Positions 11,203 to 32,000 of a stretch of 32,000 bases of DNA are shown piece by piece. Position 1 is the first letter of the stretch. Each line of letters opens with the position of its first letter. Under the pieces are notes generated by a model, which saw only the letters and a program-made list of their open reading frames with translations, made no database searches and was not told the origin of the DNA. The stretch is from Mucisphaera calidilacus. GTDB lineage: Bacteria > Planctomycetota > Phycisphaerae > Phycisphaerales > Phycisphaeraceae. The stretch covers positions 3,360,001-3,392,000 of the forward strand of contig NZ_CP036280.1 in assembly GCF_007748075.1 (NCBI RefSeq), given 5' to 3'. A program made the position numbers and the translations under genes.

Positions 11203-11207
11203 CGGTA

Positions 11208-13822: not shown

Positions 13823-15751
13823 CTAGAAGAGCGTCATCCGGACGTAGTGCCAGGCGTGGCGGAACAGACGCCAGCCAAGCGGGGCGTAGCCAAGGTCGAG
13901 TCGTGCCCGGCCGGTCGGTTCCGAGAGCGCCAGGTGCGGCTCGAGGCCGTCGAGACTGATGCCGGTGCGGAGCTCGTAACGCATCTGGCCGGTCGCGGGG
14001 TCGGGCACGCTGGAGGGCGAGAGGGTCAGCAGGCTCTCGTAGGTCACCCGCTGCTCGAGATCGGGCCAAGGCCGGCTCAGGAACGTCGCCCGGACGGGCT
14101 GTCCGGCCGTGAGCCGTGTCTGCACGAGGCCGACGTCCTGCTCGGGCACCTCGACCACCAGCTCGAAGCCGGAGAGGTCGCCGATGCTCAGCAGTTCCTT
14201 GGCCTGATCGACGGTGGTGCCCTCTAGTTCTTCGGGCCGCGTGCTGAGCACGACGCCTGAGATCGGGCTGCGGATCGCGGAGCGCTCGATGCGTCGCGAG
14301 AGCGAGGCCTCCTGGATGCGGAGCTGCTCGATGCGGAGGTCGGCGAGCATCATCTCGCCGGGGCGTTGCTGGGTGCGTGCGTCGCGGCGGGCCAGCTCCT
14401 GCTCGCGGATCGCGGAGCGCGTCAGCGCGCGTTCGGCGCGGACATCGGTGGTGTCGAGTTCGAGGATGACCTCGCCCTGCTCGACGGCCTGCCCGGCCTG
14501 AACGAGCACGCGTTCGACGGTGCCCGGGTAGGGCGTGGTGAGGGTGTGCAGCACGCGGGGCTCGAGCCGAGCGTCGACGCGCACCGCCATCGGGAAGGGC
14601 AGGATCATCGCCAGGAGCAGAGCGAGCAGCGCCATCATCAGCGCGCCGGACCGCCAGGCCGCCCGCCTCGGGTTGGTCCTGGCCTGCGCGAGGGTCTGGC
14701 CCAGGCGTCGCAGCGGCCGGGCTTCGAGCTCGATGGCACGCGCCAGGAAGGGGCCGACGCTCTCGGCCAGCTCGACCTCGCCGGGCGCGAGTTTACTGGC
14801 TTCGACGGCCTCGGCGTGCTCGACGATCAGGACCGCCGGCGTGCGTTCGTCTTCGGTGATTGGCGTGACGCAGACCGCCTGAGCCCCGCCCAGCTCGAAG
14901 AGCTGATCGACAAAGGGTTGGAGCTCGACGGCGTCGCCCTCGAGCACCTGCCCCTTCTGGAAGGCCATCGGCTGGCCGGAGGCACGCGTGGCATCGGCGA
15001 GGGTGCGGACGGCTTGGGCGAGGTTGGCCTTGGGGTTGGGATCAAGGGTGTCGGAGAACCACGCCTCGGGCTTCGAGCCCCAGAAACCGACGACGGCGGC
15101 CCGCTGGGCGTGGAAGAGCTGCCGCGCACCCTGAGCGAGTTCGTGGGCCAGGTCGCTCGGCTTCTCGATCCGGCCGAGGTTCTGCAGGAGCGTGAGCAGG
15201 GCGCGGTAGTGCGACGCGGAGCGTTCCACCAGTTCCGACTGGCGGTGGCCCATATGCCGCCCCATGGCCTCGGCGGCCTGCTGGCAGAAGGCGACGTACT
15301 CGCGGTAGAGCTTGGGGTCGAGCTCGCCGCTGCAGATCACCTGCAGGATGCCAAGCCGCTTGCGCCCGCTGCTGATCGCGAGGTAGAACTGCACGCCTCG
15401 GGTCAGGCCGTCGGGACCGTCCTGCATCTCGCCGGGCGGGACGACGACCGCCTGAGCCGGATCGTTCCAGGTCTTGCGCAGGGCGTTGGCCACGACGCCG
15501 ATCGGCGCGTGCTGCTCGTCGAGGACGCCTCGGGCCAGATCCCCCTCCATGGCGATGCCGCGGTAGGCCCTGCCGAGCGTGTCGGCGGCCAGCCAGACGA
15601 GTCCCGACTCGGCACGCATGGTCTCGACGACGACGTGGAGCACCTCCCGGGCCACCTCGGTGGGAGCGCGATCGGTGGCACGCGACAGTCGCTCGAACTG
15701 TTCGAGCGCCTGCTGGACGGCCTGCCGGGCTTGTGCGGTGAGATCCTGCAT
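13823..15751 (-). CDS. GAF-GAF sensor domains + single TM + HlyD-family periplasmic adaptor
   Basis: There are two GAF-like regions (...ESGLVWLAAD...FYLAISSGRKRLGILQVICSGELD...; ...AAVVGFWG...AVCVTPITEDERTPAVLIVEH...). These are followed by a TM helix (GALMMALLALLLAMILPFPM) and adaptor motifs (YPGTVERVLVQAGQAVEQGEVILELD, coiled coil, IRSPISGVVLS, barrel). Its stop lies 10 nt upstream of the next gene's start. Confidence 0.75.
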   Translation of the reverse strand: MQDLTAQARQAVQQALEQFERLSRATDRAPTEVAREVLHVVVETMRAESGLVWLAADTLGRAYRGIAMEGDLARGVLDEQHAPIGVVANALRKTWNDPAQAVVVPPGEMQDGPDGLTRGVQFYLAISSGRKRLGILQVICSGELDPKLYREYVAFCQQAAEAMGRHMGHRQSELVERSASHYRALLTLLQNLGRIEKPSDLAHELAQGARQLFHAQRAAVVGFWGSKPEAWFSDTLDPNPKANLAQAVRTLADATRASGQPMAFQKGQVLEGDAVELQPFVDQLFELGGAQAVCVTPITEDERTPAVLIVEHAEAVEASKLAPGEVELAESVGPFLARAIELEARPLRRLGQTLAQARTNPRRAAWRSGALMMALLALLLAMILPFPMAVRVDARLEPRVLHTLTTPYPGTVERVLVQAGQAVEQGEVILELDTTDVRAERALTRSAIREQELARRDARTQQRPGEMMLADLRIEQLRIQEASLSRRIERSAIRSPISGVVLSTRPEELEGTTVDQAKELLSIGDLSGFELVVEVPEQDVGLVQTRLTAGQPVRATFLSRPWPDLEQRVTYESLLTLSPSSVPDPATGQMRYELRTGISLDGLEPHLALSEPTGRARLDLGYAPLGWRLFRHAWHYVRMTLF

Positions 15752-15999: not shown

Positions 16000-16215
16000 T
16001 TCACTGTTGACCCGATCGTGTCCGTTATGGTCGTTTGAGTGATAGGGGCGTGATTTGCGTAGTGCCGCCCTCCCGCATGGGATCAACCGCCCGAGCCATC
16101 CTTCTCCTTACTCATCCTCCCTCAACGCGCCCACGATGCATAGGTCTCCGGAGACGGATGGAACGTTACACAGCCTCACAAACCGTGGCCTGACAGCAGA
16201 CTGAAAGGTGTGTCC

Positions 16216-19200
16216 GTGTTCTCACGCAAAAAGCGACGTACAGCGATGAAGAAACGGTCGAGCAAGCAGCAGCAGGCGAAGCAGCCGGCGCGCAAGAAGA
16301 GCAGGCTCCAGCTCGAAGCCCTCGAGCCTCGTGTCCTGCTCACGACGCTCTTCGGCGGCGACACCTTTGTCTACACCGACGCCAACGACAACAACGTCGA
16401 GGTGCAGATCGAGGGCGACGTCATCGTCGAACTCATCGCGGCCCAGTACAACCCCGCCATCGACGGCTTCGAGATCGGCAACCTGCCCGGCCTGCTGCTG
16501 GCCGACGGCGGCGGGCTCAACTCCCCGATCATCGGACGCACCAGCTCCTCCATCACCGTCTTCAACGACGACGGGGCCGCGGTCAACAACGTCTACGGCG
16601 CGATCAACGGCGGGCTCAACGGCACCATCGGCTCCACCTTCTGGACCGACATCAGCTCGTTCATCATCCCCGACACCATCACCGGGGTCACGGTGCCCGA
16701 GGACGACGCGCTCGAGTACCAGTCGATCGCCACCAACGCGGCGGGCGACACCTACGGCTTCCTGGTCCTGCCGCGCACCTACGTCGATGCCAACGGCGAG
16801 GAGTTCGAACAGAACGAGATCTTCGTGGTCAGGCTCGACTCCACCGAGGGGGGCACGACCCACGAGCTGATCGCCTCGTTGTCCAATCTGCAGGGGGGGC
16901 TGGGCTCCGGCGGCCCCGACGCGATCGGGCCGCTCTACAACCTCGAACTCGATGCCGATACCAACGCCGCCGACTGGGAGCCGCTGGTCCGCGCCGCCGA
17001 CTTCAACCCCGGCGACGGCCTGCTCTACTTCGTCGTCGAGGCCGAGGACCCCACCATCGGCTCGCCGATCGACAAGCTCTTCGCCTACGACGTCGAGAAC
17101 GACGTCACGTTCCCCGTCGTGGACCTCGAAGGATCACCCGCCGATCCCGCCGACCCCGCGCCGCTCTTCCCGCCCAGCGAGGAACAGTTCATCTCGTCCA
17201 TGGCCTTCGAGGTCACCGGACAGGAAGACGGCAACAACACCTACCGCATGGTCTTCTGGATCGACGTCGACGACGAGGAGATCGGCGGCCAGCTCGCCTG
17301 GGTTGACGTGACCGAGGACCCGACCGACGACCTGCGGAACACCATCGCTACGCAGGCCTCGGACAGCGCCAACTTCAGCTTCTCGGGGGCGCTCGTCGAC
17401 CCCGCCACGGTGCGCGAGGACGACCCCACGAACATCACCGGCGTCACCGGCATCGAGTTCTTCGGCGACAACACCCTCAACACCGAGCAGTTCCTCTACA
17501 TCGTCGACGGCGACAACGCGCTGCTCTACCAGGTCGACATGACCGACACCAGCCAGGTCCGGACGATGGGCGTCACGACCGACGGCGACCCCGACGAGCC
17601 GAACGGCGAGAACCTCGCCGGCATGGCCTACGACGCCAACACGCTCAACCCCTTTACCGGCACGCCCGGCGTCTTCTTCGCCACGGACACCGAGACGGAC
17701 AACCTGGTCATCCTCGACCACCGCTTCCGGCCCTCCACCGAGGCGGGCGCCGGTGCCGATCTCTTCATGATCTACGTCACCAAGGGTGACTCGGAGAACG
17801 GGCGCATCCGCATCGCGATGCGTAACGACGACATCTTCGTGACCGGCAACGAGGACCCCCGCAGCCTGACGCCTTACGGCGGCGAGGCGTACGAGTGGTC
17901 GGCGGCGCTGACCGACGGGACGCCGACCATCACGCCCCCCGGCGGCTCGGGCGGCGTGCTCATCGGTGCCGTCGATGATCCGGACAGTGACATCCCCGTC
18001 AACGTTCTCGACCCCGTTTACGTCGGCAACCTCCCCGAGGGCCGCAACGAAGTCCCCGACTTCGTCACCTACCCCTACCTCTTCGACACCCACGTCAACC
18101 TCAACCAGGGCACGCCCGAGGACGAGGGCCCCGACGTCGCGCCGGGCGTTCAGATCTCCGCGTCGCTCTGGGACTACTACTCGGGGTCGCTGCTCGGCTC
18201 GCTGATGGGCAACAACATCGACGTCGTGACCGAGGCCGCCATCAGCGCCGACGGCACGCGTCTGGCGCTCATCGACTCGGACGGCGTCGACGCGCTCGGA
18301 CGCACCGTCGACGAGAACGGCGACTTCATCGGCGACGAGCTGTTCGTCTTCAACCTCAGCACGCTGCAGCTCGAGCAGTCGACACGCATCTTCTCCAACG
18401 CCTCTGGCTCACGCGCCACGCTCAGCAACATCCAGGGCCTGGACTTCGGCGACTTCGACTCCGACGGCGTCGACGAGCTGTACGCCATCTACAACGCCGG
18501 CGGCAGCGCCAGCGTCGGCGTCCTGCAGGTCGGGTCGAACGGCCTGTTCACCGGCGAGTTCATCGCCAACGCGGCCATCAGCCGCGCGCCCGGCAGCCCG
18601 CCCGCCACCAACACCGCGCCCGCCGCCGACGACATCCGCATCACCCTGCGCGACGGCACCAACATCGACGTCGACCTCGACCAGCTGCCCGACCTGACCA
18701 CCGTCACCCTCCAGCAGCTCATCGACGTCATCAACGACGATCCCGACAACCTCGCCAACCCCGACGCGAACATCGGCGGCAAGCTCCTCGAGGTCCGTGG
18801 CAACAACACGCTGCTCTCCGACTTCAAGGTGGGCAACTTCACCCACCTCGAGTTCATCGACCGCAGCAGCCTCTTCTACATGATCGACAACGGCAGCTCC
18901 ACGCTCGCCAGCGCACTCGGCCTCGACAAGGTCGACGGCTCCGACCGCATCAACGAGAACCAGCTGCCCGACGGCACCCTCAGCGCCGGCCTCGCCTTCG
19001 AAGACATCTACGCCCGCCTGCACGACGACACCGTGCTCCACGACATCCAGGACGCCCAGGGCGAATCCCTCTTCACCGCCGCGGGCGTCAACACGCTCCT
19101 GAGCAACGGCGCGGGCGTTGTTGACTTCACCATCGAGACGCGCGACGGCAACACCTTCGAGGTCGATCTCGACGGCGCCGCCTTTGCGGCCCTCGACGAC

Positions 19201-22200
19201 ACCAGCACCCTCGACGACTTCATCACCGCACTCGGCACGGTGCAGGACACGACCGCCACAACCGACATCGCGACCGCGCTCAACTTTGCTGTCACCGGCC
19301 GGCTGCAGATCACCGATACCACCGTCTTCGACGACAACAGCATCTTCCGGGTCGTGATCGCCAACGACAGCACCGCGATGGCGCTGCTCGGCCTGACGTC
19401 GACCAACGCCGAGGACTCCACGGGATCGACAACCCGTATCGACGGCAACACCGTCGACAACATCACCGGCAACCTCGCCATCAGCCTTGATACCCCGATC
19501 GACGCCCTGCTCGACCGCAACCTCAATCCGGTCGATGTCACCGACGCCGACATCACCCTCAAGGGTCAGGACGGCGCGCCGCAGAACTACACCTTTGTCG
19601 CGGGCAACACGCTCCAGACCATCATCGACGATCTCGCGCCGGACGACTTCACGCTGAACATCGCGCCGGGCACCGCGGTAACCCTCGACGACGGCAACGC
19701 CGCCGGCACCACCATGCAGCTCAGCGACCAGGCCGGCTCGAGCTTCTTCAGCCAGCTCTTCTTCGGGACCAACGAGACCGGCACCGCGGCGATCGACGAC
19801 GACAGCGCTCCCGACGTCGCCGGCAGCAACCCGGGCATCATCCGCCCCGACGATTTCTTCTCCACCGGCCAGACGATCACGCCCGCCGCGCAGCTCAGCG
19901 CGATCTGGGCCAGCGAGATCACGGGACGCGTGCAGGCCTTCGCGATCGACCCGATCACCCAGCACGGCTTCGCCATCGACGACGGCTCGGTCGACGGCAC
20001 GTCGCTGATCGAGTTCAACCTCATCACCGGCGCCGCGATCCGTTCGGGCCTGCTCCCCGATCAGCTCGACGGCGCGGACACCACCGCACGCTTCGGCACG
20101 ATGGACTTCACCAGCGACGGCAACCTGCGCGCTCACGACGTCGCCACCGGCAGCCTGATCACCATCGACACCACGAATTTCCGCAGCGGCCTGCTCTCCG
20201 CCGCGAACATCCCCTTCACGGGCAACCAGCGGATCGCGATCGACCTCCAGGACGGCACGACCGACTTCTTCGTCGACCTCACCGGAGCGAACGACTTCCA
20301 GGGCATCATCAACCGCATCCAGTCGGCGACCAACGGCAACGTCTCGGTCACGCTCGGCGGGGCCAACTCGCTCATCCTCACCGACAACACCGCGGGCGGC
20401 GGCACCTTCGCCATCCGCAACGCCGCCGGCACCAATGCGGCGACGCTGCTGGGCATCAACACCGTGGACAACGGCGGCGGCGACCTGCGAGCCGACGTCG
20501 GCATCATCCAGGGCCAGCCCAACTTCACCGCGGTCAACATCGACCCGACCCTGAGCACCGTCTCGGGCAGCATCGGGCCGGACATCGGCGCGATCACGTT
20601 CAACAACGCCACCAGCGAGTTCCTCGGGCTGAACAACGCCCTGAGTGTCCACCGCCTGCTGAACGAGGCGGGTTCCAACGAGTCGGCGGCGCTCGTCCGC
20701 CTGGCCGGGTTCGAGGCCGGCGACGCCGAGGGCCAGGACCTCCGCGACCTGTTCATCGGCGGCACGCTCACCGGCGTCTTCTACGGCACCGGTTCGATCG
20801 AGACCCTCTACGTCGGCTGGGCGATCACCGGCGACGCCACCGGCAAGAACACCGGCCTGTTCACCAACACACTCGATCACGACTTCATCCTGCTCGGCGA
20901 CGTGCGCGACCTGATCTTCTCCTCCTCCGTGGGCGGCTCCGACGCGCTGGAGACCACCTTCAACGTCACGCCGCTGCTCACGACCGGCACCGACATCTCG
21001 GTCGGCGGGACCATCGGGCGGCTCATGGTCGCGCGTCCGGGCTCCGGCCTCTACGCCGACGTCACCGTGCTCAACCCCGTTGAGTTCAACGACGGCATCG
21101 ACTACGACGACCTGCCCTACTCCGAGATCGAGGGCAACAACGACCCGAACATCACCGACCGCATCACCCAGAAGTGGTCGCTGCCCGAGATCGAGCCCTA
21201 CGCCACGCTCTACGCCGGCGACGGCCGCTTCTCCAACGACAGCTTCGAGACGGCCGAGCCGCTCGGGGCACTGCGCAACGGCGGCATCGACGGCTCCGAG
21301 GCCCTGACGGTCCGCGGCACGCTCTATTCCGGGATCAACGACGACGACCACGTCGACTACTACAGCCTCGGCCTGCTCGCCGGGCAGACCATCACACTCG
21401 ACCTGGTGCCGGTTCTCGACATCGACTTCAACCCCTTCCGCGTCGGCATCTTCGACCCGGACGGCCGACTCGTCGCCACCAACTACGCGCACGTTGACAA
21501 GGTGCGCAAGGCCAGCGACTTCTTCGAGTTCACCGCCGACATCCCCGGCGAGTACCGCTTTGCTGTCGGCGTCTTCACGAACCCGCTCTTCGAGGACGGC
21601 GGCGACACGATCACCGCTGAGTACAACCTCGACATCTTCGGCGTCGGCAACATGGGCCTCGGCGGCGTCGTCGCGACCAACATCGCCAACAACATCATCA
21701 GCGTCGCGCAGGGCGACATCGGTGCGGTCCGCGCCGACACCAACCAGATCGCCAACGTCGGCTTCCTGGCCGGCCGCAACATCCGCTCGATCGACGCGGC
21801 CGACGACATCGGCTACCGCGAGGGCGAAGACATTGTTGATTTCAGCATCATCGTCCAGGCCGGAGGCGACGTCGGCCTGATCCGCCAGCAGTTGGGCATC
21901 GGCGAGGGCACCATGCAGATCGGCAGCCTGTTCGCGGGCGGCGACGTCCAGATGATCGAGGCCGGCGGCATCTTCATCGGCAACCTCTCGATCGACGGCG
22001 GCCTCGGCGTCCTCCGGGCCGGTGGCATCAACGGCAGCGACACGGCCGGCGGCGACTACGAGGGCCCGATCAGCAACATCCGGGTCAACGCCGACAACTC
22101 GCTCGACGGCGACGGCATCATCGACCTGATCGACGTCGCGGGCGACCTCGGATCGAGCGCCCAGGCCCCGAACAACACCGTCGTCATCGGCGGCCCCTCC

Positions 22201-25200
22201 ATCAGCACCGGGCCCGACGGCAACGTGCGCTATATGCGCGTCGGCGGCCTGATCTACCAGAACAACGACTTCGGCGCCGGCCAGTTCGGCGAGTTCCGGC
22301 TCGACGCCGGCGAGGGCGCCACGATCGTCGACGACAGCGGCGCGACCGTGCGCATCGCACCGGTCGACACCGGCGAGGTCGTGACCAACGAGGACGGCAC
22401 AACCCCCGACGAGGACGACCCCGTCGCCTTCCTGACCTACCGAACCTTCGCGATCGCCGACGGCGGCTCGGTGCTCGTCGACATCCACTCCTCCGGCGGC
22501 GTCTCGATCGTCGGCAACAGCCTCGGCACGGGGGCCCCGGTCGAGATCGGCGCCATCTACGCCAACGGCCAGGGACGCGCCGTCACGATTAACGAGGAAG
22601 AGGGCTTCGCCGAACTGCCCGAGCTCGAGGTCTTCGAGGAAGAGATCGACCTCTACGTCAGCATCGGGGGCGGCCACAACAACCCCGTCCACGTCTACTA
22701 CGTCGGCACCGATGGCGACGACAACGGCACCTCCGAGACGCGCGGCCAGTTCAGCGCCATCACCAACAACACCGGCGGCGAGATCGTCAACATCGAGGCC
22801 GCCACCATCGGCACCCTCAGCGTCGACGGCGTCGTCGGCTACGGCCTCAGCTACGCCACCGACTCGGCGGTCCGCGGCTTCCTTCTCACGCAGGACATCA
22901 TCGCGAATGAGAACATCGCCACGGTCGTCACCGCGCCGCGCACCGGTGTTGTCTCGGGCAGCATCGAGAACGTCCGCACCGACACGGCACTGGGCAACTT
23001 CTTCGTCTCCGGCATCGTCACCAGCGTCCGCGCCGACGCCGACGGCATCGACGACCCCAACCTCTTCGAGGGCGTCAACGGCGCGTTCATCGTCATCGAC
23101 GATTCCGGGCTCGAGATCCTCAACGGCAACATCTTCAGCTTCGACGTGGGCGAGGGCATCTCAAGCTCGGGCTCCGGACAGTTCGCCGAGGCAGGCATCT
23201 TCGCCATCGGACGCATCGACGGCGGCTCCCTGATCATCGGCACGGGGGCCATCGGCTCGATCACCGGCCGCGACGCGGCGATCTACGGCGACATCTACGC
23301 CGACATCTCCATCCAAAACATCAGCCTCACCGGCGATTCGGTCATCAGCGGCGGCGACATCCTCGTGACCGCCGGTTCGGCTGCGACGCTCCAGCTGCTG
23401 GACCCTCTTGTCCTTATCGACGGCGGCCTGGCCAGCGGCCTGAGCATCAACGACCCCGACCCGGACGCCGTCGCGCTTGGCGAGCGGCAGCGTGTCGGCC
23501 TGAACAACATCAACGTCAATGGCACCGGCGGCATCATCGGTGCCTTCATCGGCGGCCCGCTGATCGGCAACATCACCGTCAACAACGGCTTCGGCATCTT
23601 CAACTCCGTCGTCGCCTCCCCCGGCACCGAGGGGACCATCAACAACCTCAACATCGACGGCTACGGCCTCCGCGGCACCTACGTCACCAGCAAGGGCGAC
23701 ATCAACAACATCCTCGTCAACGGCCGCGGCGAGCAGCTCGCCGTCACCGACTTCTCCGTCCACGCACGCTCCAGCGAGTCCGTTGGCGTCGATCCCGCCA
23801 CCGGCATCGCCTTCGACCCCGCCACCGGCCTGCCCATCGACCGCTACAACGACCTGCACCGGTTCCTCGGCACCGACGCGACCACACCCGGGACCAGCGA
23901 CCTCGACAACGCGGGCGTGATCGACAGCGCGGTCATCCAGACCGCCGGCAACCTCACCGGGCAGATCCGGGCTTACCAGATCGCCTCCACCTATGACCCC
24001 TCCGACGAGCACCCCTTCAACGACCAGATCCTCTCGGACACCCTCGGCAACGCCCTGCCCGCCTACACCTACATCAACGTCGCCGGCAAGCTCAACAAGC
24101 TCATCCTGACGAGCACCGCCGCAAACCTCCAGGATCATCACAACATCAACACGGTCGCCGGCCAGTCGCTCGGTATCGACCCGTTCACCTCGCTGCCCAC
24201 GGAGCTGGCCGACGTCTCCATCGCCGGCCTCTCGATCACCGCGGGCGAGCTGGGGACCTTCACGCCGGGCGCCAACGTGGTCGGCCTCGACCTCACCGTC
24301 GACGGCCTGATCCGCAACCTCAACTTCAAGGGCGACCTGCTCTCGCTCACCGAGCTGGATCCCATCCTGACCTCCTCCATCGAGGCCAGGGGACCGGGCG
24401 GGCAGATCACCAACCTCACCGTCGCAGGCGACATGCAGGCCGATATCTTCGCCACCAACTACATCAACCGTGTGACGATCGATGGCGACCTCACGGGCAC
24501 CATCACGGTGCTCCGCGGCGACCTGCGCGGCCGCGGGCTGGGCACGCTGACCCTCGGCGGCGACCTGATCGACGGCGGGCTCGATATCGAGGGCGACGTC
24601 AACGCCATCCGCATCGACGGCAGCGTCGGCAACCCGCGCAACGCGTTCGACGAGATCGCCGACCAGCTGCTGATCACCGGCAACCTGGGCACCTTCCAGT
24701 CCGGCCAGCGCGTCGACGGCGCCAACATGGCCCTGGACCTGGTGGTCCTGGGCGACATGCGCACCCTCGACGTCTCGGGCATGTTCACCGGCGAGCTGTT
24801 CGTCGGCGGAGACCTGGGCAGCTTCCGCGTCGCGGCCGACGCCGTCACCCGCGGCACCACGATCATCGGTTCCGAGTTCGGCGACGTCGACGTCAACGTC
24901 AGCGGGACGATCGGCTCGGTCACCGTCAGCAACGGCCACGTCGGCGACGGCGAACTGGACACCAACAACGACGCGGTCCTCGAACGCGTGCGCATCAACG
25001 CCGGAGAGGGCATTCGCAATTTCTCGGTCACCAACGGCAGCGTGCTCGCCGACGCCCAGGTCGCGTCGGCGCTCGGCGACATCAACGCCATCACCGTCCG
25101 CGGCGGCGACTTCCACGGACGCGTCGACGCCAACGCCGGCACCGTCAGGAACCTGCGCCTCTCCGGGTCCGACTTCGGCGGCTCCCTCAACGCGCTCGAG

Positions 25201-28200
25201 CTGTCGAGCTTCACCATCGACGGCTCGCTGCTCACCGGCGCCACGATCGACGTGGACGAGGCGGGCCGGATCTCTATCGGGCAGGACATCCAGGCCGGCG
25301 TCGTGGTCACGCTCGGCTCCGCGCAGTCGCTCACCGTCCGCAACGACCTCAACGGCACCCTCCTCGTCGAGGGCACGAGCAGCAGGCTCAACCTCACCGT
25401 CAGCAACGACGTCACCGGGCAGGTGTTCCTCGGCGCCGACGCGAACATCCGGATCGGCGGCGACCTCGACTCCAGCACGCCCATCACCGTCGACACGACG
25501 CTCGCCGAGCTGGGCATCGTCGGCTCGCCCGGCTCCTCCATCGAGGTCCAGCTCCGCGACGGGACCGCCCCGCGCGTCGTCGACCTCACCGGTGTGTCCA
25601 CCATCGCGGAGCTCAAGGCCGCCATCGAGGCCGAGGTGCCCTTCGTCATCGTCAGCATCGACGACGACCAGGAGGCCATCCGGCTCACCGACGAGTCGCC
25701 CGACAACGGCGCGACCTTCTCCGTCACCGACCTCGGCAACGGCACGATCGCCCGCACGCTCGGCTTCAACACCGCCGACGGCGGGGCCGGCGACCGCGAC
25801 AACAACGCCAACGGCACCATCGAGGGCGCGCCCATCGGCTTCGGGCTTGTCCAGGGCACCTCGCTCGAAGACCTCGGCGCCGACATCGCTCCCGACAGCG
25901 ACCTGCGCTTCACGCTCAGCGACGGCTCGAGCCTCTCCGTCTCGCTCGCCGGTGCCGAGTCCCTCCAGGACATCATCGACGCCATCAACGCCGTCAGCAT
26001 CAACCTCACCGCGGGTCTCGACCCCACCGGCACGGCGCTCCAGGTCACAGACGCGACCGGCAACGGCCTGCAGATCCAGAACGGCGTCGACTCGCGCATG
26101 GCCGAGCGGCTCGGCCTGCTCGCCACCGACGGCGCGCTCGGCGACAACGACGGCGCGCTCGACGGCACCATCACCGGCTCCCGCCTCAGCGGGGCGCTGC
26201 TCTACATCGACGGCGACGCGAGCAACCTCAGCATCGACAGCGTCAACGGCGGCGTCTTCGTGACCGGCGAGCTCAGGAGCCTCAACGCCAACAGCATCGA
26301 CGCCTCCGTCATCGTCACGGGACAGGACCTCGGCAGGATCAACGTCCGCAACGACATCAGCAACACCCTTGTCCAGGCCGGACTCCTGCCCACGGCCAGC
26401 ATCGAGCAGGTCGCGCTGCAGATCCGACAGGACCTGCCCGGGCAGGCGGTCGTCCTCTACAACCCGGTCGACGGCACCGACGCCAGCCGCGGCGAGATCG
26501 GCAGCCTCAGCGCCGTCAACCTCACCGAGTCCGTCATCGCGGCGGGCGGCGAGTTCGGCACCCTCCGCCTCAGGGGCGGCATGACCGACAGCTCTGTCTC
26601 CTCCGGCATCGTGTTCGGCGTCACCGCCGTCAACGACGCCGCTCGTGACGCCACCACCCTCGGCACCGCCGCCGAACGCAACGACGCTCGCGGCACCGCG
26701 GGCGACCGCGTCCTCACCCAGGGCGACTTCGGCAGCGCCACCATCTCCGGCAGCGTCGCCACCAGCGCCATCACTGCCGGCATCGACCCGGGCGACGACG
26801 GCATCTTCGACGCCAACGCCACCAGCCTCGTCGGCGCACCCGCCGCCAACGACAGCAATATCTACAGCTCCACCACCGGCGGCCAGAGCGCGATCGGCAC
26901 CCTCAACGCCGGAGCCTGGGACGGCGCATCCCTCGGCCTCTCCGACGGGCCCATCAGCAGGACCAACCTCCCCGGCGGGCAGCAGGGCATCTTCGACTAC
27001 ACCATCGAAGCCATCGACGGCGCGGCCGGCAGCCCCGTCGCGGCCCTGCCCGTTACCGTCATCGCACCCAACGCCGACGGCACCATTACCGTCCCCGGCG
27101 CGACCGGCTCGCTCATCGTCCGGCCCGCGGGCGGCGCGACCGTCGTGGTCTACGACGACAACGCCGCCGACGACACCATCGACGCCATTGTCATCACCGG
27201 CGGCGCCCGCAACGCCAGCCTGACCATCACCGGCGACGGCGCGAACGACCCCGCCGACTGGGCCATCGAACGCATCCTCGCCGACGACGACGCCTCGCTC
27301 GCCACCCTCCGGTTCGACGGGCTGCTCACCGGCGACGACGCCACGGGCACCGTCGACCTCTGGCTCGAGTCAGGCCTCAGCACGCTCGTGCTCGGCGGGT
27401 TCGCCGAGACCACCGCCAACGGGCTCACCGGCCGTATCGCCGGCGACATCCGCACCGCCGACCTCGGCACCGTCGGCGGCGGCAACCTGACCATCGGCGG
27501 CGAGGTGAGCAGGCTCACCCTCGGCGGCAGCGAGAACTCGCCGGTCCTCGGCAACGCGGCCGAGTCCGCCTCGCCGGGCATCACCGAGATCACCTTCACC
27601 AACACCGGCCTGTTCTATTCCTTCGACGGTAACACTGGCCTCTTCCAGTCCAGCGACACCACCGACGTCGCCACCTTCGCCATCGCCGACAACGGACCGA
27701 GCACCATCGCCGCCGACCTCGGCATCGCGGGCACCGACGGCGCCGCGGGCGACACCGACAACACCGACAACAACGCGATCCTCGGCACGCAGCTCTCCGC
27801 CGACCCCATCACCCTCGACACCACCCTCGCCGACCTGGGCATCGACCCCACCGGCGGCAACGTCGACTTCGCCTTCCGCGACGGCAACACGGCCACCATC
27901 GACCTCTCCGCGGCCACCACGCTCCGCGACGTCGCCAGCATCCTCACCGCCGATTCCGAGGGACGCCTCTACACCACCCTCACCGACGACGGCGAGCTGC
28001 GCATCGTCGAGACCAGCACCACCACACGCGTCAGCATCGACGACACCCTCGCGTCGGGCGTCGAGATCAACCCCGGCGAAACACTCACGATCAGCCTCCG
28101 CGACGGCGGCGACGACCTCACCATCAATCTCTCCAACGTCTACACGCTGCAGGACCTCATCGACGCGGTCAACACCCAGTCCTTCCGCTTCTTCACCGAC

Positions 28201-31200
28201 CTCGGCGGAACGCCCTACCGCGACGCCGAGGGCAACCGCGTCCTCGACACCACCACCGGGCCGCTCGTCACCGCACGCATCAACGACGAGGGCAACGGCC
28301 TGGTCTTCGAAGACCAGACCGCGGGCGGCAACACCTTCCAGATCAACGTCGACGATCCTGACTCCGACCTCATCACCATCTTCGGACTCGACGCCACCGA
28401 CGGCGGCGTCGGCGAGGGCGCCTCCGACGGCAACCTCATGACCGGCAGCATCCTCCTGACCGAGGCGATCAAGACCGACCTCCGCGACGTGCTCGGCAGC
28501 GCCGCCGGCAACACCTTCGACCCGACCAACACCCTGCGCCTGAGCATCGACCTCCGCGACGGCTCCAACGGCGTCATCGTCGACCTCACCGGGCTCAGCA
28601 CCTTCGAGGACGTCGCTCAGGCCATCTACGACCAGACCGACCAACGCGTCACCCTCGTCACCGCGGGCGGCGCACGCATGGTCGCGATCGACAACTCCAC
28701 CGACAACGGCGGGACCTTCGCCATCGCCGATGCCGTCGGCGACCTCGCCGAGAAGCTCGGCATCGCCGCCGTCGACGACGGGGCCGACCCCAACGACCAG
28801 GACGGCGCCCCGAACGGACGCATCCTCGGACGCGGACTCGTCACCCTTGAGACGCAGCTCAGCGTCTTGGGCGTCGCGGTCAACGGCGACGAGGTCCTCA
28901 GCTTCGACCTCGCCGGGGCCGACCCCGCACGCACCGGCTTCACCGTCAACCTCGTCAACTTCACCGTCAACACCGTCGGCGACCTCATCAACGCCATCGA
29001 GACCGTCGCCGGCAATTTCCCCGTGGTCGGCAACGGCCTCACGGTCGAGATCGTCAACACCGACTTCGACGGCAGCTACCTCGTTGTTTCCGACAACGGC
29101 GGCTCCTCGGCACTCCGCATCACCGACGTCGAAGGCACCATCGCACAAGACCTCGGCATCAGCGGCTTCGACGGCGGCCCGACCGACGACGACGGCGCAG
29201 CCGACGGCACCTTCTCGTCCATCAACCTCTTCATCCGCACCGCGACCCTCGCCGACTCCAGCGTCAGCTTCGCCGGCGACCAGGTCCTCGACCTCGCCCT
29301 CGACGGCGGCGTCGCAACCGCCACCCTCTCCGACGTCGACACGCTCGCGGGCGTCATCAACGCCTTCGAGGCCGACGACAACGTCCGCGCCGGCTTCGAC
29401 GGGCTCGGACGACTCGTCCTTATCGACACCACAGGCGACGGCGGCTTCACCATCACCCAGACCAGCGGCGACGCGGCCGTCGCGCTCGGCCTGCTCCCGA
29501 CCGATGGTCTCGCGGGTGTCGCCGACGGCGTCATCAACACCCTGCCCATCACCCCCGTCGTCACCGAGAACACCTCGTTGCTCGGCGGCCTGGGCATCAA
29601 CTTCCAGGACGAGCTGGCCATCACCGTCCAGCTACGCGACTCGAGCGTCTTCAGCATCGACCTCTCCGAGGCACGCACCGCCGAGCAGGTCCTCGACGCT
29701 ATCAGCCGCGCAACCTCCGGTCTCGTCTCCGCCGAGTTCGGCGCCGGCGGACGCATCATCCTCACCGACAGCTCGATCGGCGCCGCCAGCTTCTCCATCA
29801 GCGACACCTCGGGCGTCATCGCACAGCGCCTGGGTATCGCAGCCACCGACGGCCTGGTTAATGACGTCGACGGCGTAGTCGACGGCGTGATCCTCGGGCG
29901 GTCCATTATCCAGACCTCCACACGCCTGAGCATGCTCGGCATCGACCCCGCCAACGGCATCGTCGACGTCGACTACCGCGACGGCACCAGCAGCACCATC
30001 GACCTCTCCGGAGCACGGTCCGTCGCCGACGTCGCCGCCACCCTGGCCGCCGATTCCTCCGGCAGGCTCTCCGTCACCATCACCACCGACGGCAGGCTGC
30101 TCGTCACCGACGGCTCCAGCGGAGGCGGAACCTTCGCCATCGCCGACAACAATATCTTCAGCACCATCGCCCGGGACCTCGGCATCGACCAGACCGACGA
30201 CGGCAGCGACAACGACGGCGTCGCCAACAAGCAGATCCTTGGCAACCGCCTGATCGCCTCGCAGGCGACCCTGCCCGCGGCACTCGGCGCCGGCCAGACC
30301 CTCCGGCTCAACCTCCAGAGCGGGGCCACCGTCGACGTCGACCTGTCCAACGCCAACACCTTTGGCGAGATCATCCACAAGATCAACATCGACGCCGCCG
30401 GCCTCGTCTCAGCACGGCTCGCTTCCGACGCGCGGCTCGTGATCACCGACCTCACCGCCGGCGGCAACGTCTTCTCCATCGCCGATCAGGCCGGCACGCC
30501 CGCCACGACCCTCGGCATCGCCGCGACCGACGGCGGCGCAGGCGACCAGGACGGCGAACTCGCCGCCGACGGAACCATCAAGGGCACCAGCCTCTACGGC
30601 GACAACGCGGCGGCCGTCAACCTCTTCGACCTCGGTATCAGCTTCGTGGCCGGTGACGCCTTCACCATCACCACCGCCGACAACGTCACCACCGTCATCA
30701 ACGTCGCGGCCGCCACCACCCTCGACGACCTCATCACCGCCATCGAGACCGCCCCCAACGTCTCGGTCACCGTCGGACTCGACGGCGGGCTCAACGTCGA
30801 AGACACCTCCGGCGGTGCGACCGTACCCTTCCGCATCTACACCGACGCCGGACAGAGCAGCAACGCCCTCGAACAAATCGGCCTCGAAGCCTCCGACGGC
30901 GGCGCGGGCGATCTCGACGGCTCCTCCGACAACACCATCACCGGAACCAGCATCGTCACCGCCGCCACACGCATGTCGCTCCTGGGCATCGCCGCCACCG
31001 GCGCCGAAGAACTCGTCCTCACCCTCCACGACGGCTCCACCCGTGTCGTCGACCTCACCGACACCACGACCATCGGCGAGGTCATCGAGGCGATCCAGAC
31101 CCAGACCGCCAACGACGTCACCGTCGTCATCGACCAGGCCGGGCGACTCCTGCTCACCGACACCACCGCCGACGCCGGCGGCGCCTTCACCATCAACAAC

Positions 31201-32000
31201 CTCGCCGGCACGCCCGCGACCGACCTGGGCATCCTCACGACGCAGGCCACCCGGCTCGCCGACGCCCTCGGCATCGCCGGCACCGACGGCACCGACGCGG
31301 ACGGCGCCGCCAACGGCACGCTCCTCGGTCCCGCCATCCTCACCGACGCGTTCACACTCGACGCCCTCGGCATCAACCCCGCCAACGGCGCGATCGACGT
31401 CACCCTTCAGGACGGCACCACCGTCACCATTGACCTCGCCGCCGCGACCTCCATCGAGGACGTCAGCGACGCCATCGCCGCCGCGACCTCAGGCAACCTC
31501 ACGCTCCTCGTCACCACCGAGGGACGCCTCCAACTCACCGACGCCACCGCGGGCGGCTCCACACTCACCATCGCCGACAACGGCAGCTCGACCATCGCCG
31601 CCGACCTGGGCATCGCCGCCACCGACGGCGGGCCGGGCGACGACGACGCCATCGCCAACGGCGTGATTGTGGGCGACAACATCCTCGCCGACGCACTCAC
31701 CCTCCAGGCCCTCGGCCTCGAGGCCAACGGCGCGGGCGTCAACGTCACCCTGCAGGACGCCACCGCCGCCAACGTCGATCTCAGTGCCGCCGCGTCCGTC
31801 GACGACGTCGCTACCGCTCTCGCGGCCGGCACCGCCGGCAACCTCAGCCTCGTCATCACGCCCGATGGCCGACTCCAGCTCACCGACGCCACCGCAGGCG
31901 GGTCCACCCTCCGTGTCTCCGACGACGCGGTCCTCGGCAACAACCTCGTCACCAAGCTCGTCGCCGAGGACGCACTCTCCACCGTCGACGGCACCACCAT
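16216..32000 (+). CDS. giant secreted/cell-surface repeat protein, 5' part only (at least 5,261 codons in window; continues past the right edge)
   Basis: Frame +1 has its last stop at TAG 16141-16143. I translated every line from there to 32000 and met no stop. The ORF track omits it because it has no stop. Start is GTG 16216 (GAAAGG at 16203-16208, 7 nt upstream), with ATG 16246 as an alternative. Third codon positions are strongly G/C. The N-terminus is VFSRKKRRTAMKKRSSKQQQAKQPARKKSRLQLEALEPRVLL. Confidence 0.85.
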   Translation, partial: MFSRKKRRTAMKKRSSKQQQAKQPARKKSRLQLEALEPRVLLTTLFGGDTFVYTDANDNNVEVQIEGDVIVELIAAQYNPAIDGFEIGNLPGLLLADGGGLNSPIIGRTSSSITVFNDDGAAVNNVYGAINGGLNGTIGSTFWTDISSFIIPDTITGVTVPEDDALEYQSIATNAAGDTYGFLVLPRTYVDANGEEFEQNEIFVVRLDSTEGGTTHELIASLSNLQGGLGSGGPDAIGPLYNLELDADTNAADWEPLVRAADFNPGDGLLYFVVEAEDPTIGSPIDKLFAYDVENDVTFPVVDLEGSPADPADPAPLFPPSEEQFISSMAFEVTGQEDGNNTYRMVFWIDVDDEEIGGQLAWVDVTEDPTDDLRNTIATQASDSANFSFSGALVDPATVREDDPTNITGVTGIEFFGDNTLNTEQFLYIVDGDNALLYQVDMTDTSQVRTMGVTTDGDPDEPNGENLAGMAYDANTLNPFTGTPGVFFATDTETDNLVILDHRFRPSTEAGAGADLFMIYVTKGDSENGRIRIAMRNDDIFVTGNEDPRSLTPYGGEAYEWSAALTDGTPTITPPGGSGGVLIGAVDDPDSDIPVNVLDPVYVGNLPEGRNEVPDFVTYPYLFDTHVNLNQGTPEDEGPDVAPGVQISASLWDYYSGSLLGSLMGNNIDVVTEAAISADGTRLALIDSDGVDALGRTVDENGDFIGDELFVFNLSTLQLEQSTRIFSNASGSRATLSNIQGLDFGDFDSDGVDELYAIYNAGGSASVGVLQVGSNGLFTGEFIANAAISRAPGSPPATNTAPAADDIRITLRDGTNIDVDLDQLPDLTTVTLQQLIDVINDDPDNLANPDANIGGKLLEVRGNNTLLSDFKVGNFTHLEFIDRSSLFYMIDNGSSTLASALGLDKVDGSDRINENQLPDGTLSAGLAFEDIYARLHDDTVLHDIQDAQGESLFTAAGVNTLLSNGAGVVDFTIETRDGNTFEVDLDGAAFAALDDTSTLDDFITALGTVQDTTATTDIATALNFAVTGRLQITDTTVFDDNSIFRVVIANDSTAMALLGLTSTNAEDSTGSTTRIDGNTVDNITGNLAISLDTPIDALLDRNLNPVDVTDADITLKGQDGAPQNYTFVAGNTLQTIIDDLAPDDFTLNIAPGTAVTLDDGNAAGTTMQLSDQAGSSFFSQLFFGTNETGTAAIDDDSAPDVAGSNPGIIRPDDFFSTGQTITPAAQLSAIWASEITGRVQAFAIDPITQHGFAIDDGSVDGTSLIEFNLITGAAIRSGLLPDQLDGADTTARFGTMDFTSDGNLRAHDVATGSLITIDTTNFRSGLLSAANIPFTGNQRIAIDLQDGTTDFFVDLTGANDFQGIINRIQSATNGNVSVTLGGANSLILTDNTAGGGTFAIRNAAGTNAATLLGINTVDNGGGDLRADVGIIQGQPNFTAVNIDPTLSTVSGSIGPDIGAITFNNATSEFLGLNNALSVHRLLNEAGSNESAALVRLAGFEAGDAEGQDLRDLFIGGTLTGVFYGTGSIETLYVGWAITGDATGKNTGLFTNTLDHDFILLGDVRDLIFSSSVGGSDALETTFNVTPLLTTGTDISVGGTIGRLMVARPGSGLYADVTVLNPVEFNDGIDYDDLPYSEIEGNNDPNITDRITQKWSLPEIEPYATLYAGDGRFSNDSFETAEPLGALRNGGIDGSEALTVRGTLYSGINDDDHVDYYSLGLLAGQTITLDLVPVLDIDFNPFRVGIFDPDGRLVATNYAHVDKVRKASDFFEFTADIPGEYRFAVGVFTNPLFEDGGDTITAEYNLDIFGVGNMGLGGVVATNIANNIISVAQGDIGAVRADTNQIANVGFLAGRNIRSIDAADDIGYREGEDIVDFSIIVQAGGDVGLIRQQLGIGEGTMQIGSLFAGGDVQMIEAGGIFIGNLSIDGGLGVLRAGGINGSDTAGGDYEGPISNIRVNADNSLDGDGIIDLIDVAGDLGSSAQAPNNTVVIGGPSISTGPDGNVRYMRVGGLIYQNNDFGAGQFGEFRLDAGEGATIVDDSGATVRIAPVDTGEVVTNEDGTTPDEDDPVAFLTYRTFAIADGGSVLVDIHSSGGVSIVGNSLGTGAPVEIGAIYANGQGRAVTINEEEGFAELPELEVFEEEIDLYVSIGGGHNNPVHVYYVGTDGDDNGTSETRGQFSAITNNTGGEIVNIEAATIGTLSVDGVVGYGLSYATDSAVRGFLLTQDIIANENIATVVTAPRTGVVSGSIENVRTDTALGNFFVSGIVTSVRADADGIDDPNLFEGVNGAFIVIDDSGLEILNGNIFSFDVGEGISSSGSGQFAEAGIFAIGRIDGGSLIIGTGAIGSITGRDAAIYGDIYADISIQNISLTGDSVISGGDILVTAGSAATLQLLDPLVLIDGGLASGLSINDPDPDAVALGERQRVGLNNINVNGTGGIIGAFIGGPLIGNITVNNGFGIFNSVVASPGTEGTINNLNIDGYGLRGTYVTSKGDINNILVNGRGEQLAVTDFSVHARSSESVGVDPATGIAFDPATGLPIDRYNDLHRFLGTDATTPGTSDLDNAGVIDSAVIQTAGNLTGQIRAYQIASTYDPSDEHPFNDQILSDTLGNALPAYTYINVAGKLNKLILTSTAANLQDHHNINTVAGQSLGIDPFTSLPTELADVSIAGLSITAGELGTFTPGANVVGLDLTVDGLIRNLNFKGDLLSLTELDPILTSSIEARGPGGQITNLTVAGDMQADIFATNYINRVTIDGDLTGTITVLRGDLRGRGLGTLTLGGDLIDGGLDIEGDVNAIRIDGSVGNPRNAFDEIADQLLITGNLGTFQSGQRVDGANMALDLVVLGDMRTLDVSGMFTGELFVGGDLGSFRVAADAVTRGTTIIGSEFGDVDVNVSGTIGSVTVSNGHVGDGELDTNNDAVLERVRINAGEGIRNFSVTNGSVLADAQVASALGDINAITVRGGDFHGRVDANAGTVRNLRLSGSDFGGSLNALELSSFTIDGSLLTGATIDVDEAGRISIGQDIQAGVVVTLGSAQSLTVRNDLNGTLLVEGTSSRLNLTVSNDVTGQVFLGADANIRIGGDLDSSTPITVDTTLAELGIVGSPGSSIEVQLRDGTAPRVVDLTGVSTIAELKAAIEAEVPFVIVSIDDDQEAIRLTDESPDNGATFSVTDLGNGTIARTLGFNTADGGAGDRDNNANGTIEGAPIGFGLVQGTSLEDLGADIAPDSDLRFTLSDGSSLSVSLAGAESLQDIIDAINAVSINLTAGLDPTGTALQVTDATGNGLQIQNGVDSRMAERLGLLATDGALGDNDGALDGTITGSRLSGALLYIDGDASNLSIDSVNGGVFVTGELRSLNANSIDASVIVTGQDLGRINVRNDISNTLVQAGLLPTASIEQVALQIRQDLPGQAVVLYNPVDGTDASRGEIGSLSAVNLTESVIAAGGEFGTLRLRGGMTDSSVSSGIVFGVTAVNDAARDATTLGTAAERNDARGTAGDRVLTQGDFGSATISGSVATSAITAGIDPGDDGIFDANATSLVGAPAANDSNIYSSTTGGQSAIGTLNAGAWDGASLGLSDGPISRTNLPGGQQGIFDYTIEAIDGAAGSPVAALPVTVIAPNADGTITVPGATGSLIVRPAGGATVVVYDDNAADDTIDAIVITGGARNASLTITGDGANDPADWAIERILADDDASLATLRFDGLLTGDDATGTVDLWLESGLSTLVLGGFAETTANGLTGRIAGDIRTADLGTVGGGNLTIGGEVSRLTLGGSENSPVLGNAAESASPGITEITFTNTGLFYSFDGNTGLFQSSDTTDVATFAIADNGPSTIAADLGIAGTDGAAGDTDNTDNNAILGTQLSADPITLDTTLADLGIDPTGGNVDFAFRDGNTATIDLSAATTLRDVASILTADSEGRLYTTLTDDGELRIVETSTTTRVSIDDTLASGVEINPGETLTISLRDGGDDLTINLSNVYTLQDLIDAVNTQSFRFFTDLGGTPYRDAEGNRVLDTTTGPLVTARINDEGNGLVFEDQTAGGNTFQINVDDPDSDLITIFGLDATDGGVGEGASDGNLMTGSILLTEAIKTDLRDVLGSAAGNTFDPTNTLRLSIDLRDGSNGVIVDLTGLSTFEDVAQAIYDQTDQRVTLVTAGGARMVAIDNSTDNGGTFAIADAVGDLAEKLGIAAVDDGADPNDQDGAPNGRILGRGLVTLETQLSVLGVAVNGDEVLSFDLAGADPARTGFTVNLVNFTVNTVGDLINAIETVAGNFPVVGNGLTVEIVNTDFDGSYLVVSDNGGSSALRITDVEGTIAQDLGISGFDGGPTDDDGAADGTFSSINLFIRTATLADSSVSFAGDQVLDLALDGGVATATLSDVDTLAGVINAFEADDNVRAGFDGLGRLVLIDTTGDGGFTITQTSGDAAVALGLLPTDGLAGVADGVINTLPITPVVTENTSLLGGLGINFQDELAITVQLRDSSVFSIDLSEARTAEQVLDAISRATSGLVSAEFGAGGRIILTDSSIGAASFSISDTSGVIAQRLGIAATDGLVNDVDGVVDGVILGRSIIQTSTRLSMLGIDPANGIVDVDYRDGTSSTIDLSGARSVADVAATLAADSSGRLSVTITTDGRLLVTDGSSGGGTFAIADNNIFSTIARDLGIDQTDDGSDNDGVANKQILGNRLIASQATLPAALGAGQTLRLNLQSGATVDVDLSNANTFGEIIHKINIDAAGLVSARLASDARLVITDLTAGGNVFSIADQAGTPATTLGIAATDGGAGDQDGELAADGTIKGTSLYGDNAAAVNLFDLGISFVAGDAFTITTADNVTTVINVAAATTLDDLITAIETAPNVSVTVGLDGGLNVEDTSGGATVPFRIYTDAGQSSNALEQIGLEASDGGAGDLDGSSDNTITGTSIVTAATRMSLLGIAATGAEELVLTLHDGSTRVVDLTDTTTIGEVIEAIQTQTANDVTVVIDQAGRLLLTDTTADAGGAFTINNLAGTPATDLGILTTQATRLADALGIAGTDGTDADGAANGTLLGPAILTDAFTLDALGINPANGAIDVTLQDGTTVTIDLAAATSIEDVSDAIAAATSGNLTLLVTTEGRLQLTDATAGGSTLTIADNGSSTIAADLGIAATDGGPGDDDAIANGVIVGDNILADALTLQALGLEANGAGVNVTLQDATAANVDLSAAASVDDVATALAAGTAGNLSLVITPDGRLQLTDATAGGSTLRVSDDAVLGNNLVTKLVAEDALSTVDGTT
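16306..16341 (+). other. N-terminal LQLEALEPRVLL motif (LExLExRxLL type) after a Lys/Arg-rich stretch
   Basis: Read directly from the translation. From memory, this motif recurs near the N-terminus of many large planctomycete extracellular proteins. Confidence 0.6.
18634..20484 (+). repeat. four dispersed copies of the ~115-aa 'RDG...TD...LG' module (protein-level repeat)
   Basis: Copies are anchored at ITLRDGT (~18640), ETRDGN (~19135), LKGQDG (~19558) and DLQDGT (~20245). Each has a T-L-x-[DQ]-[LFI]-I-x-x-[IL] helix, a later L-x-[IL]-TD strand and a terminal LLG[LI]. A non-repeat segment separates copies 3 and 4. Confidence 0.6.
21230..21575 (+). other. PPC-type (bacterial pre-peptidase C-terminal-like) jelly-roll domain inside the giant protein
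   Basis: NDSFETAEPLGAL...LTVRGTLYSGINDDDHVDYYSLGLLAGQTITLDLV...FRVGIFDPDGRLVATNY...FEFTADIPGEYRFAVG follows the PPC pattern (N....A..L...G.L....D.D.Y.F....G..I...L......L.L.D..G..vA.s........f.a...G.Y...V). Confidence 0.55.
25540..26178 (+). repeat. two further copies of the ~115-aa module
   Basis: First copy: IEVQLRDGTAPRVVDLTGVSTIAELKAAIEA...IRLTDESPDNGATFSVTDLGNGTIARTLGFNTADGGAGDRDNNANGTIEG. Second copy: LRFTLSDGSSLSVSLAGAESLQDIIDAINA...LQVTDATGNGLQIQN...MAERLGLLATDGALGDNDGALDGTITG. Confidence 0.65.
27580..32000 (+). repeat. tandem array of about 12-13 copies of the ~115-aa module (period ~340-380 nt; protein-level, DNA copies divergent), truncated by the window edge
   Basis: Anchors [LY][RQH]DG[TSGN] lie at ~27871, 28093, 28549, 29629, 29971, 31021 and 31402. 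Degenerate equivalents lie at ~28880, 29290, 30310, 30667 and 31744. Consensus by eye: L..LGI...g..v.v.LrDGt...iDLs.A.T..Dv..aI.....g.L...it.dGRL.LTD.t.GG..f.I.D.....iA.dLGIaAtDGG.GD.D..a.NG.I.G. Confidence 0.75.

Follow-up and report, generated by a model that had tools for sequence, protein, structure and literature searches.

The question raised by this locus is what the repeated unit of a very long, unnamed bacterial protein is, and where such a unit could have come from. The stretch analyzed here (the window) comprises 32,000 nucleotides (nt) of the Mucisphaera calidilacus genome (contig NZ_CP036280.1, positions 3,360,001 to 3,392,000), with a G+C content of ∼67%. A single open frame on the + strand runs from 16144 to 31998, has an ATG at 16246, and leaves the window at its end. 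A first look at the DNA, made without database searches (the sequence-only reading), had reported in this frame 12–13 consecutive copies of a module of ∼115 amino acids (aa), beginning at 27580. It could not assign the module to a standard adhesin repeat family, and noted a likeness to units in the head of the flagellar cap protein FliD. Comparison of sequences supports the conclusion that the module is a complete domain of ∼85–105 aa, built around the motif known as Flagellin_IN (Pfam PF07196), and that it is of the same family as the modules of the FliD head.

Copies of the module and the protein that carries them

A profile hidden Markov model (HMM) made from one unit (residues 4593–4681 of the frame) recognized seven other copies at 22–75 bits in the interval of the sequence-only reading (27580–32000), compared with a maximum of 9.9 bits in 200 shuffles of the same interval. 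Iterated to convergence, the unit HMM finds, in the giant-protein frame within the window, 19 copies of a module of ∼105–115 aa. Four lie at 18613–20559, two at 25510–26220, and 13 in tandem at 27487–31998, in agreement with the 12–13 consecutive copies reported earlier. The array is thus real, but its true start is ∼90 nt earlier than had been proposed, in a degenerate copy, and six further copies occur upstream. The starts of the tandem units (copies 7–19 below) are mostly 330–393 nt apart. The exceptions are a short unit of 219 nt and a unit lengthened to 462 nt by an insertion.

16246..31998, + strand: window part (5251 aa) of the giant protein WP_236254481.1; the gene runs past the window end
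16306..16341, + strand: N-terminal LEPR-XLL-type motif LQLEALEPRVLL, preceded by a leader rich in Lys, Arg, and Gln; read in the translation
18613..19026, + strand: module copy 1 (N-terminal cluster), unit HMM 52.5 bits
19105..19527, + strand: module copy 2, 44.4 bits
19528..19863, + strand: module copy 3, 52.0 bits
20206..20559, + strand: module copy 4, 74.9 bits
25510..25872, + strand: module copy 5 (middle pair), 68.4 bits
25873..26220, + strand: module copy 6, 65.0 bits; I-N pair retained (DAINAV)
27487..27834, + strand: module copy 7, which opens the tandem array, 27.3 bits over HMM positions 34–83 only; N-terminal half degenerate
27835..28053, + strand: module copy 8, truncated, 56.5 bits over HMM positions 1–73; lacks the C-terminal LGI and Asp-rich tail
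28054..28515, + strand: module copy 9, 61.8 bits; insertion of ∼24 aa after the helix
28516..28866, + strand: module copy 10, 68.2 bits
28867..29259, + strand: module copy 11, 49.0 bits
29260..29589, + strand: module copy 12, 46.6 bits
29590..29934, + strand: module copy 13, 79.7 bits
29935..30276, + strand: module copy 14, reference copy for the structure model, 81.7 bits
30277..30630, + strand: module copy 15, 73.3 bits
30631..30981, + strand: module copy 16, 56.5 bits
30982..31365, + strand: module copy 17, 77.4 bits
31366..31710, + strand: module copy 18, 87.6 bits; weak match to the NCBIfam FliD model PRK12765
31711..31998, + strand: module copy 19, interrupted where the window ends, 64.8 bits

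The six upstream copies form two separate clusters in the same giant protein. The stretches between clusters (∼1700 and ∼450 residues) are non-repeat and beta-rich, and have no Pfam match.

The copies are divergent, with protein identities of 17–52% to the reference copy and DNA identities of 60–75%. Tandem Repeats Finder detects no array of ∼345 nt in the DNA, and the longest in-register DNA repeats extend over 176–290 nt at 61–73% identity; a recent duplication of DNA was rejected on these two grounds. Further information on age comes from a 6793-aa ortholog (P0002) encoded in a Phycisphaeraceae metagenome-assembled genome (MAG), which has 17 modules. Most modules of the M. calidilacus protein (P0001) have a positional partner in P0002 at 41–66% identity, whereas their paralogs within P0001 are farther away (24–56%). 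Thus, most of the array is older than the split between P0001 and P0002 and has been maintained since then. The sequence-only reading had taken the divergence of the DNA copies as a sign of old repetition, and all of these results bear this out.

P0001 is listed in RefSeq as WP_236254481.1, a “hypothetical protein” of 7141 aa from M. calidilacus (Phycisphaerae, Planctomycetota). It is the top match of the profile search described below, and it agrees with the window translation without a single mismatch over the 5251 overlapping aa. The translation from the ATG at 16246 starts MKKRSSKQQQAKQPARKKSRLQLEALEPRVLLTT, and the NCBIfam model for LEPR-XLL (NF012209, ∼24 aa) scores 12.6 bits on this N-terminus, below its cutoff of 17. 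A motif of the same type is likewise N-terminal in P0002 and in P0051, a module carrier considered below, and the LEPR-XLL motif has been mentioned for other giant proteins (bioRxiv 10.64898/2026.03.19.712371). P0001 resembles giant LEPR-XLL proteins, and other repetitive surface proteins of Planctomycetota and relatives, in an N-terminus that fits LE.LEPR.LL, in huge size, in acidity, and in tandem domain arrays. It has no Cys among its 7141 residues and an isoelectric point of 4.05, with 14% Asp plus Glu versus 3.9% Lys plus Arg. A search of the genome contigs with the N-terminal 785 aa of the protein returned no relative.

The complete P0001 holds 22 modules, three of them past the window end (residues 5253–5385, 5604–5756, and 5760–5899). 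Residues 5252–7141 (1890 codons past the window) comprise these three modules, more beta-rich regions, and a C-terminal HELGHILGHNH that fits the metzincin-like pattern HExxHxxGxxH. On this C-terminal end, metzincin models of NCBIfam give sub-threshold matches only (18.3 vs. 208 bits, and others), Pfam gives no match above threshold, and the best match in the PDB has an E-value of 0.58. It should be noted that the species description reports one giant gene of >15 kb, Pan265_03220, with a product of 13,493 aa (PMC8882080). That length differs from the 7141 aa (21.4 kb) of the RefSeq protein, which would mean a second giant gene or a discrepancy in annotation.

Relationship to FliD modules and to Flagellin_IN

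Neither Pfam nor NCBIfam places any family above threshold on the array. Pfam searches of the 19 units (E ≤ 10) and of three long segments (E ≤ 1) gave no match to Ig-like/Big, cadherin-like, RTX nonapeptide, YD/RHS, or HYR families, all of which the sequence-only reading had also set aside. The only sub-threshold family that recurs on the units is Flagellin_IN, found on seven of the 19 (best E 5.7e-4). It scores 16.3 bits in the segment 27580–31998 and 10.4 bits in 23644–27579, and its gathering threshold of 22.7 is not reached. The best Flagellin_IN stretch of the array is module copy 9, and there is a weak match in copy 6 (residues 754–785 of the segment that begins at 23644).

A profile of the 19 window copies was searched against 1.84 billion representative proteins. 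With a cutoff of E ≤ 1e-3 it matched 1833 proteins; 990 of these pass E ≤ 1e-10, and 181 pass E ≤ 1e-30. The typical match has 900–1500 aa and five to nine aligned stretches. Local HMMs of the FliD termini identified these termini in 129 of the 150 top matches, and in the best matches Pfam finds FliD_N, several copies of Flagellin_IN, and FliD_C, with the Flagellin_IN stretches falling inside the matched modules. Compared directly by hhalign, the window modules align with 60 FliD modules over 101 columns (probability 99.6%, E 8.7e-25), and single FliD modules score 45–62 bits each against an HMM made from the window copies only. The likeness to FliD head units proposed in the sequence-only reading is therefore well founded. 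On average, modules of the giant protein are 29% identical to FliD modules, and no closer than that (29%) to one another. A word-index homology search with three modules and with a 49-sequence module alignment had no match, and is uninformative in that it missed the source protein itself.

The similarity holds position by position. The consensus of the FliD modules is “d.rIT.RdG.t..vDLsga.TlgDVidaIN...vtA.i..dGgL.LtD.tgG...l.V...staA.DLGi” and that of the window modules, nearly equal to it, is “l.itLrDG.t..vdL..a.Tl.dvidaI......GrL.ltD.t.gg.tF.I.D...st.A..LGl”. The motif string proposed from the DNA agrees with the module consensus. The long inserts of FliD proteins consist of the same domain family, also in tandem, with three to eight modules (median five) between the coiled-coil domains FliD_N and FliD_C. 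The giant protein, in contrast, has 22 modules in three clusters and lacks flagellar termini.

Two of the matching proteins come from MAGs of the host's own family, Phycisphaeraceae (MCC5827953.1 and MCC7409361.1); both are annotated as “flagellar filament capping protein FliD” and have five to six modules. The best-scoring FliD (P0003, 1489 aa, eight modules) is from an Omnitrophota MAG (WGBD01000002.1; L001 3001–7467). P0003 is an unusual cap protein, in that an F5/8 type C (discoidin) domain is inserted in or beside FliD_C.

Why, then, does Pfam fail to recognize the module in the window? The 55 positions of the Flagellin_IN model correspond approximately to module positions 13–66; they start where strand 1 ends, include the helix, and reach strand 4. 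The model covers about half the domain, and it was built on flagellar proteins. On the comparison FliD modules it scores 44–74 bits. The I-N pair that gives the family its name is present in 89 of 120 FliD modules, versus six of 22 in the giant protein, in which the Ile (or Leu, Val, or Phe) stays and the Asn is mostly replaced. It is because this pair is mostly lost that Pfam misses the module here. Accordingly, the proposal that the repeat is of no standard adhesin family stands, except that it falls within a partly described family, PF07196, of which it is a divergent and unrecognized use.

These comparisons bear on the suggestion that the module represents an undescribed, unrelated repeat family, similar to FliD by chance or composition. 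The lack of any curated model at threshold and the RefSeq name “hypothetical protein” would fit this. It is contradicted, however, by FliD modules that clear the Flagellin_IN threshold and that resemble the module specifically, over its full length and at each position, and we regard it as extremely improbable.

Descriptions of the family concern only flagellins and hook-associated proteins (PMC9751261). We found no publication that reports the module outside flagellar proteins or that describes long FliDs from planctomycetes, although this is a weak negative given incomplete coverage of the literature. Besides FliD, the carriers include proteins of the flagellin/FlgL type with Flagellin_N and Flagellin_C (P0015, P0020, and P0114). 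Non-flagellar carriers are a small minority. P0108 and P0118 combine LEPR-like N-termini with RTX repeats, P0051 has a LEPR-like N-terminus and cadherin-like domains, and P0122 has RTX repeats without the LEPR-like N-terminus. In P0051, P0108, and P0118, four to seven modules stand beside standard adhesin repeats, whereas in P0001 and its ortholog P0002 the FliD-type module is the main repeat (22 and 17 copies). In other non-flagellar carriers the module thus accompanies LEPR-like N-termini and repeats of the RTX or cadherin-like type, a pattern that fits an extracellular structural or adhesive role.

Given that nearly all other module carriers are FliD or flagellin/FlgL-type proteins, and that the organism is motile, the giant protein could be thought to be a flagellar component itself (an oversized cap, junction, or sheath protein that uses flagellar type III export). 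However, Pfam finds no FliD_N (PF02465), FliD_C (PF07195), Flagellin_N, or Flagellin_C, either in the portion encoded in the window or in the final 1891 aa of the 7141-aa protein. In addition, the N-terminal LEPR-XLL-type motif is typical of giant non-flagellar proteins, and in its size, its beta-rich non-repeat regions, and its metzincin-like C-terminal motif the protein is unlike the axial proteins of flagella. We thus consider a flagellar component very unlikely.

Predicted fold of the module

The sequence-only reading had allowed that the module might prove to be disordered. The AlphaFold2 model of the reference unit (29935–30276), for which the input alignment was the 19 window copies, is ordered, with a predicted local distance difference test (pLDDT) score of 90.3 and a predicted template modeling (pTM) score of 0.82. 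In the predicted order, two strands and a helix are followed by three more strands and a short helix, and an Asp-rich loop then leads into the last strand (residues 100–105). The “beta-alpha-beta-like” description given earlier was correct with regard to a helix and strands, but the model is richer in strands (beta-beta-alpha-beta-beta-beta-(short helix)-beta).

The tail of the unit model (residues 81–110) has pLDDT values of 80–94. Because the tail is modeled confidently and with a final strand, what appears to be a linker is predicted to be part of the domain, with few residues between units. The Asp-rich tail, tDGgagD.Dga.dG.I.G, is conserved in P0001 and P0002 and sporadic in FliD. Residues conserved in at least 90% of the modules are G17, D59, L82, and G83.

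Solved FliD structures from Campylobacter jejuni (6SIH and 9GSX) and Helicobacter pylori (6IWY) are at or near the top of both the PDB profile and Foldseek lists, although weakly. FliD of H. pylori ranked first when the window-module profile was searched against PDB sequences (E 0.004, three stretches). Overall, the FliD entries have profile E-values of 0.001–0.004 and Foldseek TM values of 0.26–0.49. Non-significant structural matches include “minor capsid proteins” of giant viruses (Klosneuvirus and Catovirus; TMq 0.57, E 0.013) and the EhV-201 capsid chain 8rbs_K.

An additional possibility is that the module is a beta-grasp (ubiquitin-like) domain, and that its likeness to FliD comes from a shared ancient fold rather than a flagellar link. 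Both the window and the FliD modules have recurrent sub-threshold matches to RA_2, OTU1_UBXL, Rad60-SLD, and superantigen beta-grasp families, and the order of elements (bb-a-bb..b) is beta-grasp-like. When a richer module profile (A4) is searched against the PDB, strands 1–2 and the helix align weakly to ubiquitin and other beta-grasp proteins, with module positions 7–40 placed on beta1-beta2-alpha1 of ubiquitin. On closer consideration, the polyubiquitin E-values (2e-9) were discarded. They are the sum of nine matches of 4.7 bits; ubiquitin repeats score 4–6 bits each, and a single ubiquitin has an E-value of 0.04–0.4. The PDB is rich in ubiquitin chains, but Foldseek places none of them among the 50 best matches. 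Moreover, the FliD match spans all 101 columns, so this specific relationship stands whatever the deep fold may be. On balance, we think it improbable that a shared beta-grasp fold explains the likeness.

Proposed role, origin, and genomic setting

How might a domain of the flagellar cap be used in a protein of this kind? We think it reasonably probable that the modules are structural beads of a long stalk or fiber, in a non-flagellar giant protein of the surface or matrix that has drawn on the FliD-insert domain family. Each module would serve as a stable, solvent-exposed structural bead. In each unit the final strand, together with the Asp-rich segment, would fold back onto the domain, leaving few residues between units, and the conserved Asp-rich tail may bind Ca2+, which would stiffen the units. 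The array could then form a long, semi-rigid stalk or fiber that spaces or presents the beta-rich regions and the metzincin-like C-terminal end, either at the cell surface or in the dense extracellular matrix of M. calidilacus. By analogy with the exposed heads of FliD, an extra ligand-binding role is conceivable. The simplest origin would be an exchange of the domain between the flagellar cap gene of this lineage and a surface-protein gene, in either direction, followed by ancient internal amplification of the module. The species is motile and shows gel-like growth inside a dense extracellular matrix, with a “polar matrix or fibre” (PMC8882080), and such a lifestyle fits a stalk or fiber of this type.

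Several points weigh against this interpretation. Localization, Ca2+ binding, and rigidity of the giant protein are inferred, and the Asp-rich tail, as read from its sequence, deviates from the canonical DxDxDG/EF-hand spacing. Throughout the window, Flagellin_IN remains below the Pfam cutoff (16.3 vs. 22.7 bits). The AlphaFold2 model of three modules, for which the in-register alignment had four rows, is poor (pLDDT 57.5, pTM 0.40). Finally, Foldseek found no significant match to the unit in the PDB (the best were FliD of C. jejuni and H. pylori, with E-values of 0.09–0.4), and thus the fold class is not assignable from solved structures.

A different use of the same domain must also be weighed. 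The modules may be mainly ligand-binding (polysaccharide, matrix, or surface), which would make the array a multivalent adhesin instead of a passive stalk. The same domain family sits in the exposed part of FliD. Adherence of some bacteria has been described as requiring FliD, and in C. jejuni an additional FliD domain has been postulated to relate to heparin binding (PMC7316729). An alginate-binding flagellin has a beta-domain that carries the Flagellin_IN motif (PMC9751261). In the giant protein itself, the wide divergence of the copies, with only core residues kept, looks as if surfaces vary, and M. calidilacus lives in a self-made matrix. However, the module has no known ligand, binding site, or conserved surface patch, and the four most conserved residues look structural (turn and core). 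In addition, the role of the FliD insert is itself a postulate in the work cited (PMC7316729). Our view is that an adhesin is possible but doubtful.

We would rate as unlikely, though worth stating, a stronger version of the structural proposal, in which the giant protein is the main scaffold of the gel-like matrix or of the “polar fibres”, its FliD-type modules self-associate as the heads of flagellar caps do and are locked into a rod by Ca2+ on the Asp-rich tails, and a domain of the flagellar tip has been exapted for an extracellular polymer that is not flagellar. Were that the case, a flagellar structural domain would have founded a new class of matrix/adhesin repeat in the PVC group.

Returning to structural beads in a stalk or fiber as the preferred interpretation, it is important to distinguish what was already known from what is new. 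The Flagellin_IN family was known in part, as were giant repetitive secreted proteins of Planctomycetota as a type of host. It is new that the “motif” called Flagellin_IN forms the core of a domain of ∼85–105 aa that is complete and able to fold, and that this domain builds very long FliDs (900–1500 aa) in Phycisphaeraceae and also in Omnitrophota and other bacteria. New, too, is its use as the main repeat of a giant, non-flagellar protein, where it has a divergent form with the I-N pair lost and the Asp-rich tail fixed. As an instance of domain reuse this is of moderate interest, and it does not amount to a novel type of repeat. In practice it improves annotation: the main repeat of a 7141-aa “hypothetical protein” acquires a name and relatives. 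No long-standing question is opened. The domain is without a close solved structure, and a structure, along with data on binding and Ca2+, would inform both the biology of the cap and that of planctomycetal giant surface proteins.

The remaining features of the window lie upstream of the giant gene:

292-1896, + strand: pyruvate kinase
1863-2414, + strand: PurE
2411-3550, + strand: PurK
3657-8308, + strand: HlyD-type adaptor and AcrB-type RND transporter
8600-9010, − strand, and 9616-11268, + strand: open frames without Pfam match, which may not be genes in such G+C-rich DNA
11617-13812 and 13823-15751, − strand: two genes divergent from the giant gene, both with HlyD-type membrane-fusion domains

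One of the two divergent HlyD-type neighbors also matches PqqD-like models below threshold and peptidase M50 just above it, and the other has a GAF domain.

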